NCBI GenBank assembly: GCA_036519575.1
Contig: DATDKZ010000057.1
Coordinates: 1-53,302 of the forward strand
From: Actinomycetota bacterium
GTDB taxonomy: Bacteria; Actinomycetota; UBA4738; HRBIN12
Direction of reading: 5' to 3'
DNA: 53,302 nt
Positions 39,303 through 40,899 of this stretch are shown piece after piece; position 1 is the stretch's first letter, and every line of letters begins with the position of its first letter. A program made the position numbers and the translations under genes. The notes beneath the pieces were generated by a model. The model was not told the DNA's origin, ran no database searches, and saw only the letters and a list, made by a program, of their open reading frames with translations.

Positions 39303-40034
39303 CTAGGCGGGGGGGCCGGGAGCCGCCCTGCTGCTCGATGCGAGGTCGGCGGGTTCGTCTCCGCCGGCCTCGCCGACGACCACGACCTGGTCCCTCGATC
39401 CCGACTCGATCGTGGCCTCGATGCACTTGGTGATGTCGATCATGCGGTCCCGCATGACCCGCAACTCCTCCATCAGGGCCGCATGGCGCGACGACAGGCT
39501 CGAAAGGACCCTCTCGGACTCTCTCTTGGCCTCCGCCAGCGCCTCGGTCGCCTGCAGACGGACCTCCTCGGCCTTGCTCTGGGCGTCGAGGCGGATCTCG
39601 TCGGCCTCGGCCCGGGCCTTGGCCTGGGCCCGCTCGGCCTTCGCCGCGGCCTCTCCGCGCGACTTCTCGGCCTCTTGCTGGATTCGGTCTGCCTCGATCC
39701 TCGCCTCCGCGACGACGCGCTCGGCTTCCGCCTCGGCATCCTGGCGTAGCTTCCCGACATCCTGATCGAAGGTTCGCATCAGATCGGCCACCCGAGCGCC
39801 CACGCCCTCGTACTCGTCTCGAGCGGTGCCAGCCCGCTCGTCTGCGTCCCGCTGACTCAATTCCCCCTGGAGTCGCCGGACCTCGGTCTCCAGGGCATCC
39901 AGGTGGTCTGTCAGCCGCGTCACGTACTCCAAGACCTGATCCGGGTCGTACCCACGCCGCACCTTCCCGAAGGTTGGTAGGTTCAGCGACCCGGCGGTTG
40001 CCGACGGCGCCGGCCCTGATTCCTGGGTGGCCAT
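39303..40034 (-). CDS. DivIVA-domain coiled-coil protein, paralogue A
   Basis: ATG 40034 after [27 protein letters not shown] (DivIVA-domain motif), then [22 protein letters not shown] coiled coil. 243 aa. Confidence 0.8.
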
Positions 40035-40203
40035 GCGTCTCCTCCTATCGAATCCACTGATGCACGGACGGTAGTCGTTCCTCAACCCGAGGGTAACTGC
40101 CATCCGGGGGCATGGTGTAGGTCGATCTCCCTAAGGCATTCGTCCAAGGTGAGCCTAGTGAATCGGCCCTCTTCCTGCTTGCCCGGTTTCCGGCCGATCG
40201 GGC

Positions 40204-40899
40204 CTAGGCGTTGGGGTCGGAGCGCCCATTCGAGGAGTTGACCGACGTTGCGTCCCCCCCATCGCTTCCAGGGGCCTCCTGCAAGAGCACGACCTGATCA
40301 CCAATCGAGCCCTCGATGGTCGTCTCCAGAACCTTCGCCGTGTCGAGCATCCTGTCGCGCATGGCCCGGAGCTCGTCCACCAGGGCATCCCGGCGAGCGA
40401 CCAAGGTCGACAGCGCCTGGTCGGACGCGATCCGGGCTTCCCGAAGCGTCCGCTCGGCCTCTGCACGCGCCTGGTCAGCCTCGTCCTGCGCGTTCAGACG
40501 GGTGCGCTCGGCGTCGGTCCGGGCATCGGCCACGAGGCGCTCGCTCTCGGTCCGGGCGTCCGCGAGCAGGCGCTGGACCTCCGCCTCCGCCTCGGCACGA
40601 AGCCTCTCCACGTCTTGATCGAACGTCCTGACGAGGTCGGCCACCCGGGGGGAGATGCCGTCGTAGGGATCCTGGTCGCCGACGGTGTCCCGCACCGCGG
40701 TGCCCTGATGACGTGCTTCCTTCAGCTCCGACTCGAGCTGGTGCACGTTTGATTCCAGAGCTTCGACGTGGTCGGCGACCCCGCTCAGGTATTCGGCGAC
40801 CTGGTTGGGGTCATACCCGCGAAACACCGTGGCGAACGTCGGCTGGCGGTTACGGCCGGCGGTCGCCGATGGCAAGAGATCTGGCTCCCATGTACCCAT
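40204..40899 (-). CDS. DivIVA-domain coiled-coil protein, paralogue B
   Basis: ATG 40899 after AGGGGGA. PTFATVFRGYDPNQVAEYL, then AEAEAEVQRLLADARTESER. It is collinear with paralogue A (RVADL.RTFDQDV..LR, RMxD..K..E.TIE). 231 aa. Confidence 0.8.
   Translation of the reverse strand: MGTWEPDLLPSATAGRNRQPTFATVFRGYDPNQVAEYLSGVADHVEALESNVHQLESELKEARHQGTAVRDTVGDQDPYDGISPRVADLVRTFDQDVERLRAEAEAEVQRLLADARTESERLVADARTDAERTRLNAQDEADQARAEAERTLREARIASDQALSTLVARRDALVDELRAMRDRMLDTAKVLETTIEGSIGDQVVLLQEAPGSDGGDATSVNSSNGRSDPNA

Follow-up and report, generated by a model that had tools for sequence, protein, structure and literature searches.

What two tandem coiled-coil genes lodged between map and infA are, where they come from and what they may do there is the question raised by contig DATDKZ010000057.1 (assembly GCA_036519575.1) of an uncultured soil actinobacterium, of which we analysed a stretch of 53,302 nucleotides (nt; hereafter the window) within a metagenome-assembled genome (MAG) of 2.17 Mb in 265 contigs. 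The initial annotation had placed two open reading frames (ORFs) of 231 and 243 amino acids (aa), here named geneA and geneB, in this junction, and both were recovered on the minus strand, together with the 169-nt and 140-nt spacers that follow them (the latter separating geneB from infA) and a ribosome-binding site (RBS) for each gene (AGGGGGA 5' of geneA, AGGAGG 5' of geneB). Our answer, which taken as a whole we consider probably right, is that the pair goes back to a gene linked to prfA, was formed by tandem duplication and constitutes a membrane-associated DivIVA-like scaffold pair at an operon boundary. With the pair, a known scaffold family has expanded in one particular lineage, and no new kind of system is involved; what goes beyond the ordinary are its prfA-linked descent, the recurrent tandem duplication and a split between Phe/Trp and Arg at the tip of the N-terminal domain, all of them modest evolutionary observations.

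Descent from a prfA-linked gene and apparently recurrent duplication

Four loci with a match to the DivIVA family (PF05103) were detected in the genome itself. The first, in the ftsZ-yggS-sepF cluster of contig C8 (53.1 bits, followed by ileS), is by position the canonical DivIVA/Wag31, and lies in the dcw (division and cell wall) neighbourhood in which the initial annotation had expected such a protein. The second (contig C58, 256 aa, 58.4 bits) is located downstream of rho, between a DUF1385 membrane-protein gene (277 bits) and prfA, and is co-directional with them, 101 nt 3' of the former and 51 nt 5' of the latter. Its product is 43% identical to geneA, a value equal to that found between geneA and geneB, and the conserved blocks are common to all three proteins. 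The cluster rho, DUF1385, DivIVA-like gene, prfA and prmC is conserved (G000 contig C58:6150-10966; loci L001 and L126).

With each prokaryote species represented by a single genome, a scan recovered 284 relatives, and the neighbourhoods of the best 80 (all uncultured MAGs, 79 labelled Actinomycetota and one Planctomycetaceae) had DUF1385 upstream and prfA downstream in 65 cases, one of these two in 2, a position after map in 10 and another position in 3. In a 70-row tree, all 23 map-adjacent genes and three relocated ones formed a single clade (SH-aLRT 99) nested within the prfA-linked genes, and a 34-row subset (which leaves out 33 prfA-type rows, L109, L124 and the dcw outgroup, 36 rows altogether) gave the map-adjacent clade a support of 100/99. 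Of the 90 genomes from family f1, 88 had the prfA-linked parent, which was also present in f2, f3, f6 and half of f7 and was not found in f8 (0/11) or f5 (0/1) at E <=1e-12, the sampled class consisting of one order. Both trees and synteny show that the map-adjacent genes descend from this clade-wide prfA-linked DivIVA-like gene.

Within the 34-row tree, the genus of the window yielded a joint geneA and geneB clade (88/76) that comprised a geneA clade (92/89) and a geneB clade (100/98), while a second lineage (L053, L063, L093 and the single copy of genome G024; 99/98) held its own copy-1 and copy-2 clades (100/99 each). Approximately unbiased (AU) tests on the same rows rejected four of four cross-lineage pairings of the copies (p 0.0055-0.020). 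Thus, the tandem duplication apparently happened twice, in different genera. Since the last ~75 nt 5' of geneA and 5' of geneB are alike, the duplicated unit included the leader; the region upstream of the prfA-linked parent gave no convincing alignment with either leader. As the only copy in genome G008 falls in the geneA clade, we consider that this genome lost geneB.

An alternative history, in which one ancient tandem duplication was followed by gene conversion that homogenised the copies within each lineage, has to be weighed here, given that conversion readily affects tandem paralogues whose leaders are homologous, that support for the joint clade of the genus is just 88/76 and that the single copies of G008 and G024 each join one copy type, as expected from losses. 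The copies are, however, 33-48% identical within a lineage and sit in separate clades with supports of 92-100, with no recent homogenisation seen, and every cross-lineage grouping was rejected by the AU tests, so we hold a single duplication to be unlikely. An origin as a mobile element was also rejected: the GC fraction (0.64-0.71) is like that of the flanks and no flanking direct repeats were found, tRNA genes and integrases not having been searched for.

Some members have left the junction. L055 (3917-4708) lies between leuS and rsfS-nadD-obg, and L062 (3803-4615) beside an S1-domain gene, ppx/DUF501, ftsB (DivIC) and eno, both sites being housekeeping gene boundaries too; L018 and L109 are found near ABC transporters.

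Family membership and coding reality

Both proteins exceed the PF05103 cut-off of 28 bits (Table 1), so that the profile search agrees with the initial reading of their N-termini as DivIVA domains and does not place them in an unrelated coiled-coil family. A profile built from 58 relatives had its best match among solved structures in the GpsB N-domain 6gpz (E 2.2e-6), followed by the DivIVA N-domains 7o39 (E 1.8e-5) and 2wuj (E 2.9e-5), and no other convincing match beyond DivIVA/GpsB N-domains was obtained. The RGYD..QV..YL motif does not vary, and Actinomycetota DivIVA-domain proteins make up the nearest Atlas clusters (score 0.94). In public records, 19 of 22 members examined in the geneA orthologue cluster are named 'DivIVA domain-containing protein' and one geneB orthologue is named 'cell division septum initiation protein DivIVA'. 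A Foldseek search of the AlphaFold2 (AF2) monomer against the PDB gave no match at E <=0.001 (2wuk was found at E 9.9, with TM 0.58-0.61 over 44-45 columns).

None of the narrower equivalog models was reached by geneA or geneB, be it Wag31 (NF050102; 29.6 and 17.4 bits, cut-off 260), GpsB (NF010725; 23 and 12 bits, cut-off 91) or Scy (NF041483; 25 and 19.6 bits, cut-off 1040). An assignment as the Wag31 orthologue was rejected, the dcw position being held by the PF05103 gene of contig C8.

Weak NCBIfam and PDB matches to V-ATPase E, FliH and ATP synthase b (E 1e-5 to 0.02), and the public name 'ATP synthase F0 subunit B' carried by one second-lineage copy, could be taken to mean that the pair belongs with the peripheral stalks (ATP synthase b, V-ATPase E) and that the DivIVA match is spurious. 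This we regard as highly implausible: the scores stay far below the respective cut-offs (24.9 against 241 for the V-type E subunit, 22.2 against 156 for F0F1 b), the stalk matches are confined to the Ala/Glu/Arg-rich rod, and the N-domain matches DivIVA/GpsB specifically, with its invariant motif and the public names of its orthologue cluster. The record in question (L063:3992-4678, P0020), a map-adjacent protein of the second lineage, scores 31.7 bits with Pfam DivIVA, and its name looks like a misannotation due to the hendecad rod.

The paralogy of the two genes, which the initial annotation had read from shared blocks, stands far above chance (BLASTP, 43% identity over 251 columns, E 3e-58), and the listed blocks are visible in the alignment. 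Among genus relatives, the ratio of nonsynonymous to synonymous substitution rates (dN/dS; NG86 method) was 0.27-0.38 for geneA (6 pairs) and 0.35-0.45 for geneB (5 pairs), as compared with 0.10-0.13 for map (4 pairs); values so far below 1 point to purifying selection on both genes. Orthologues are kept in 7-8 genus genomes, with 70 invariant columns among 8 sequences of geneA and 84 among 6 of geneB, and geneA is matched by a 422-nt RNA-library contig with 9 mismatches. That the pair consists of decaying or non-functional duplicates, or of artefacts of ORF calling (GC-rich DNA gives many spurious ORFs), is scarcely credible in the face of the constraint seen over these 11 comparisons, the invariant columns, the conserved start regions and RBSs, the Pfam scores above cut-off and rod insertions and deletions of 11, 18 and 29 residues that preserve the coiled-coil register, even though the dN/dS of the pair is about three times that of map and genome G004 harbours a third copy with an in-frame TAA and no N-domain motif.

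A public protein record puts the start of geneA at residue 9 (TTG, 40875) instead of the ATG at 40899 used here; the ATG is favoured because the first eight residues (MGTWEPDL) are kept in the genus orthologues.

Architecture and the tip residue

The AF2 model of geneA (58-relative alignment, mean predicted local distance difference test score, pLDDT, of 79.6) is composed of a disordered segment (1-18), a helix (31-71), a short linker, a second helix (78-198; pLDDT 97-99) and a disordered tail. The DivIVA/GpsB-type N-domain (residues ~19-71) has heptad periodicity, the hydrophobic period of its helix being 3.32-3.52 depending on the residue set and 3.50 in both proteins when V, I, L, M, F and W are counted. 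The rod of ~120 residues has a period of 3.62-3.64, near 11/3 (power 2.3-3.3, the 95% level of shuffled sequences being 1.4-1.5), its DNA carries internal 33-nt repeats, and orthologues differ within it by insertions or deletions of 11, 18 and 29 residues, the insert of geneB measuring 18 residues.

Residues 19-61 of geneA align to residues 10-52 of Bacillus subtilis DivIVA (2wuj), which places F26-R27 on F17-R18. The DivIVA tip is described, in the available part of PMC8348161, as the combination of a bilayer-inserting hydrophobic residue with one or more arginines that bind phosphates. At the aligned position, the eight geneA-type proteins of the genus have Phe (7) or Trp (1), as the dcw DivIVA has Phe, while all seven geneB proteins and all 76 prfA-linked ones have Arg; in the second lineage, copy 1 has Arg, Arg and Lys and copy 2 has Trp, Trp, Arg and Arg. 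From these counts, the hydrophobic tip arose at least twice, each time in one pair member only. By analogy with DivIVA, we infer that the ability to insert directly into the membrane may have been regained by geneA, and not by geneB or the prfA-linked parent. The split at the tip offers a simple handle on the gain and loss of membrane binding by a DivIVA domain.

The map-infA junction as an operon boundary

The initial annotation had described the pair as embedded in the translation operon; its position between map and infA stands, and the single operon does not, as a separate infA-led unit with a promoter-like site and leader of its own was found. A sigma-70-like site (TGGACG-17-TATACT) is the only one in 38700-41300 (shuffle mean 0.1), and both hexamers and the ~85-nt leader are kept in 12 of 12 genomes in which 170 nt 5' of infA were aligned, irrespective of the upstream content, which may be a pair or a single copy, but also a response-regulator-like gene, small ORFs or a large surface protein. 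It is this conservation that puts the pair at an operon boundary. The leader has a consensus fold of -29.7 kcal/mol with compensatory changes in 6 of 28 pairs (RNAalifold, 12 genomes), and an Rfam scan of 36000-44500 at E <=1 returned a chance mir-138 match and left the leader unmatched; it may represent a so far undescribed leader that regulates the infA-rpmJ-rpsM unit.

RNA-library contigs (four sets), which cannot show absence, starts or levels, cover infA heavily in all four, and one of them spans 39094-39226. In X15, the summed contig depth falls from 74 to 0.3 beyond ~39250, which agrees with a start near the predicted infA promoter. GeneB is almost without contig cover in the four runs, geneA has a depth like that of map and adk (carry-over of DNA being possible), and no contig in the four sets spans map to infA. 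One contig joins the 5' end of geneA to the post-map spacer with 77 nt skipped.

The hairpin after map consists of 5 pairs with TATTTCTTGG behind them; six genus relatives do not conserve its T-run. Since this hairpin is weak and unconserved, and the consensus scan recognised no promoter for the pair, read-through from map is possible. TAnnnT-like elements were noticed by eye ~50 nt 5' of both starts, had no conserved -35 and were not used as promoters. For the geneB leader, the consensus fold amounted to -10.2 kcal/mol with 0 compensatory pairs (RNAalifold, 7 genus genomes), and an anti-Shine-Dalgarno pairing (CCTCC/GGAGG) proposed for it was rejected, having no covariation support. Features of the locus are listed in Table 1.

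Table 1. Coordinates of the features around the geneA-geneB locus in the window.
Feature	Position	Strand	Evidence or remark
secY	43682..42396	-	Pfam SecY
adk	42393..41731	-	Pfam ADK
map (methionine aminopeptidase)	41734..40979	-	Peptidase_M24, 180.8 bits; 92-96% identical in genus relatives; last recognisable gene of secY-adk-map
map-geneA spacer, 79 nt	40978..40900	-	weak terminator-like hairpin (40942..40926) and geneA RBS
geneA, DivIVA-like coiled coil, Phe26-Arg27 tip	40899..40204	-	PF05103, 39.2 bits
geneA-geneB spacer, 169 nt	40203..40035	-	geneB-proximal ~115 nt conserved, AGGAGG RBS at the end (7 genus genomes aligned)
geneB, DivIVA-like coiled coil, Arg26-Arg27 tip	40034..39303	-	PF05103, 37.0 bits
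sigma-70-like promoter of the infA-led unit, TGGACG-17-TATACT	39276..39248	-	consensus scan
infA 5' leader, conserved, structured	39247..39163	-	RNAalifold, 12 genomes
infA (IF-1), TTG start	39162..38944	-	Pfam eIF-1a, 108 bits; 96-99% identical in genus relatives

The order 3' of infA is rpmJ, rpsM, rpsK, rpoA, rplQ and truA (Pfam matches to S13, S11, RpoA, L17 and TruA). Between rpsK and rpoA, where rpsD would normally stand, there are only 89 nt (37928-38016), and the sole Ribosomal_S4 match of the genome is on another contig (C108:677-934).

Distribution of the pair

The order map-geneA-geneB-infA was found on one contig in 5 of the 12 genomes of the genus sample (G000, G002, G007, G009 and G010). 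In G001 the pair is present and followed by the contig end, and G008 has geneA alone. G004 carries one more, degenerate copy that contains a TAA stop, and ~7 kb including a huge repeat ORF precede its infA. In G003, G005, G006 and G011 (completeness 82-93%), the locus was not assembled across and no geneA- or geneB-type match was obtained with the query.

Within the family sample (151 genomes, map found in 134), a DivIVA-like match lies at most 2.5 kb 3' of map in at least 17 of the 134 genomes, belonging to 6 of 33 genera, and tandem copies occur in at least 10 of the 134. This synteny survey of the map-infA spacers shows that the insertion noted in the initial annotation is neither unique to the genome nor ubiquitous in its clade, and it was uncharacterised. 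In a set of 41 genomes of relatives, nothing but a gap of 113-230 nt separates map from infA in 13, and in 10 the space between them is filled with something other than a DivIVA-like gene. The junction behaves as an operon boundary and, as shown by the unrelated inserts or none in other genomes, as an insertion hotspot. Any count that includes G001, G003, G011, G029, G037, G049, G058, G078, G127, G138 or G162 draws on genomes that are flagged as unpublished.

Other occupants of the junction were recorded. In G019, of another genus, a 448-aa ORF (L028 494-1840, minus strand) fills the map-infA gap, with a response-regulator receiver score of 25.9 bits against a cut-off of 30.2. Just 5' of the infA promoter and on the opposite strand lie a repeat-rich 1636-aa ORF with 330-nt tandem repeats in G004 (L025 4700-10400) and a 992-aa ORF with a repeated VTKTGD..VGD..YT motif in G005 (L038 263-3241). 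The third DivIVA-like copy of G004 (L025 595-2077) directly follows map, which in this genome spans two reading frames; both could reflect either real decay or long-read assembly errors.

Proposed role of the pair

A copy of the prfA-linked gene landed 3' of map, between the secY-adk-map and infA-led units, and the map-adjacent copy was then duplicated in tandem, apparently twice in different genera. Judging from DivIVA, GpsB, FilP and SepIVA, each protein would be a parallel coiled-coil dimer whose N-domain tip serves as the binding site. GeneA may have regained a Phe-Arg tip of the kind that DivIVA inserts into membranes, and the presumably ancestral Arg-Arg tip of geneB would be better suited to a protein partner or to acidic lipid head groups. 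The two proteins probably cooperate, and possibly co-assemble, in a membrane-associated scaffold for envelope growth or division. Interactions among DivIVA-like paralogues are known, SepIVA being reported to bind DivIVA in a two-hybrid system (PMC11571769). For the heterodimer suggested in the initial annotation, a complex prediction of geneA 1-210 with geneB 1-222 (orthologue alignments, run without controls) gave scores of 0.28 and 0.27, the mark being 0.32, and favours neither answer. Transcription of infA would start at a promoter of its own located 3' of the pair, and the pair itself would either be read through from map or use promoters outside the scanned consensus.

Several observations weigh against this proposal. 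The 70-row tree is rooted by a single dcw outgroup branch of 5.5 changes per column, the groups compared in the AU tests were named after inspection of the tree, and gene conversion between tandem copies could mimic independent duplication. The TIGR03544 domain model (cut-off 22 bits) is passed by geneA (22.8 bits), while geneB falls below it (17.6 bits). In one of the three second-lineage pairs (L093) the tips are Lys and Arg, with no hydrophobic residue, and the tip argument borrows a result of B. subtilis DivIVA for proteins that are ~30% identical to it in that region. The consensus scan of 38700-41300 detected no sigma-70-like promoter for either gene of the pair, and localisation, membrane binding and oligomerisation are predicted from sequence and model.

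In a stricter version, the repeated and independent formation of tandem pairs would signal that an obligate two-component scaffold has evolved, with a hydrophobic-tip (Phe or Trp) membrane anchor and an Arg-Arg client binder encoded at the tail of the secY-adk-map transcript; we find it doubtful. If it were true, the dose of the pair would track the secretion and translation machinery.

The surroundings of these genes may also be read as co-regulation, the subfamily being tied to translation or co-translational processes (e.g., by anchoring ribosomes, translation factors or the translocon to the membrane). The parent is closely flanked by prfA and DUF1385 (an arrangement held by 65 of the best 80 relatives), the derived copies follow secY-adk-map and precede infA, the relocated L055 lies between leuS and rsfS-nadD-obg, and the unrecognised promoter, the weak unconserved hairpin and the contig linking the 5' end of geneA to the post-map spacer would be in keeping with read-through. 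Other relocated members, however, are found near ppx, DUF501, ftsB and eno (L062) or near ABC transporters (L018, L109), infA has its own promoter, the junction takes unrelated inserts or none (10 and 13 of 41 genomes) and all characterised members of the superfamily act in division or polar growth (PMC9858780 and PMC11571769, as far as the accessible parts of both extend). Considering that gene neighbourhood alone is weak evidence, we deem a tie to translation quite improbable, and continue to prefer a membrane-associated scaffold of prfA-linked descent.

Since no cultured member was present among the records found, the cell biology of this lineage is readable from genomes only, and its four DivIVA-like proteins (the dcw copy, the prfA-linked copy and the young tandem pair) provide a compact series of duplication and divergence. 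The practical gain is modest: an annotation is fixed (neither Wag31 nor ATP synthase b), the operon map at map-infA is corrected, and a conserved infA promoter and leader, possibly a regulatory RNA, is added.

Comparison with known systems

The DivIVA-like superfamily, as delimited in the available part of PMC9858780, comprises DivIVA, GpsB, FilP, Scy and PolyDIV, and paralogues elsewhere (GpsB, FilP, Scy, SepIVA) have each taken separate roles. With DivIVA/Wag31 (PF05103; 2wuj, 2wuk) the pair shares the N-domain motif F...RGYD..V..(F/Y)L and a coiled-coil remainder; the Phe-Arg of geneA aligns to F17-R18, whereas geneB is devoid of the hydrophobic tip residue. The rods differ as well, that of the dcw copy having a period of ~3.5 that is not significant, as opposed to ~3.64 in the pair.

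FilP and Scy likewise have a DivIVA-like N-domain followed by a rod with an 11-residue period (their rods are described as hendecad-based in the portion of PMC9858780 at hand), and Scy matches the pair weakly (E 3e-6). The pair resembles these proteins without being a member of either group, as it is far shorter, has another gene neighbourhood and belongs to another clade. GpsB, confined to Firmicutes according to the same partial source, has no hydrophobic tip (VRGY in the alignment), in analogy to geneB and the prfA-linked parent, yet at ~100 aa and with a different C-domain it is unlike the pair. SepIVA, a protein of mycobacteria and Streptomyces, is a second, shorter actinomycete DivIVA-like coiled coil whose size (~240-350 aa) is like that of the pair; it was compared by its description in the accessible sections of PMC11571769, where orthology is defined by BLAST and shared gene neighbourhood.

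A map-adjacent DivIVA-like pair is undescribed in the literature searched, a point on which the supplements of PMC9858780 and PMC11571769 could bear, and the map-infA landing site, the recurrent tandem pairs and the tip split are not described in the available part of PMC9858780. That same part reports that multiple DivIVA-like paralogues are widespread and that lineage-specific duplications are ongoing, a process of which the locus between map and infA represents one instance.

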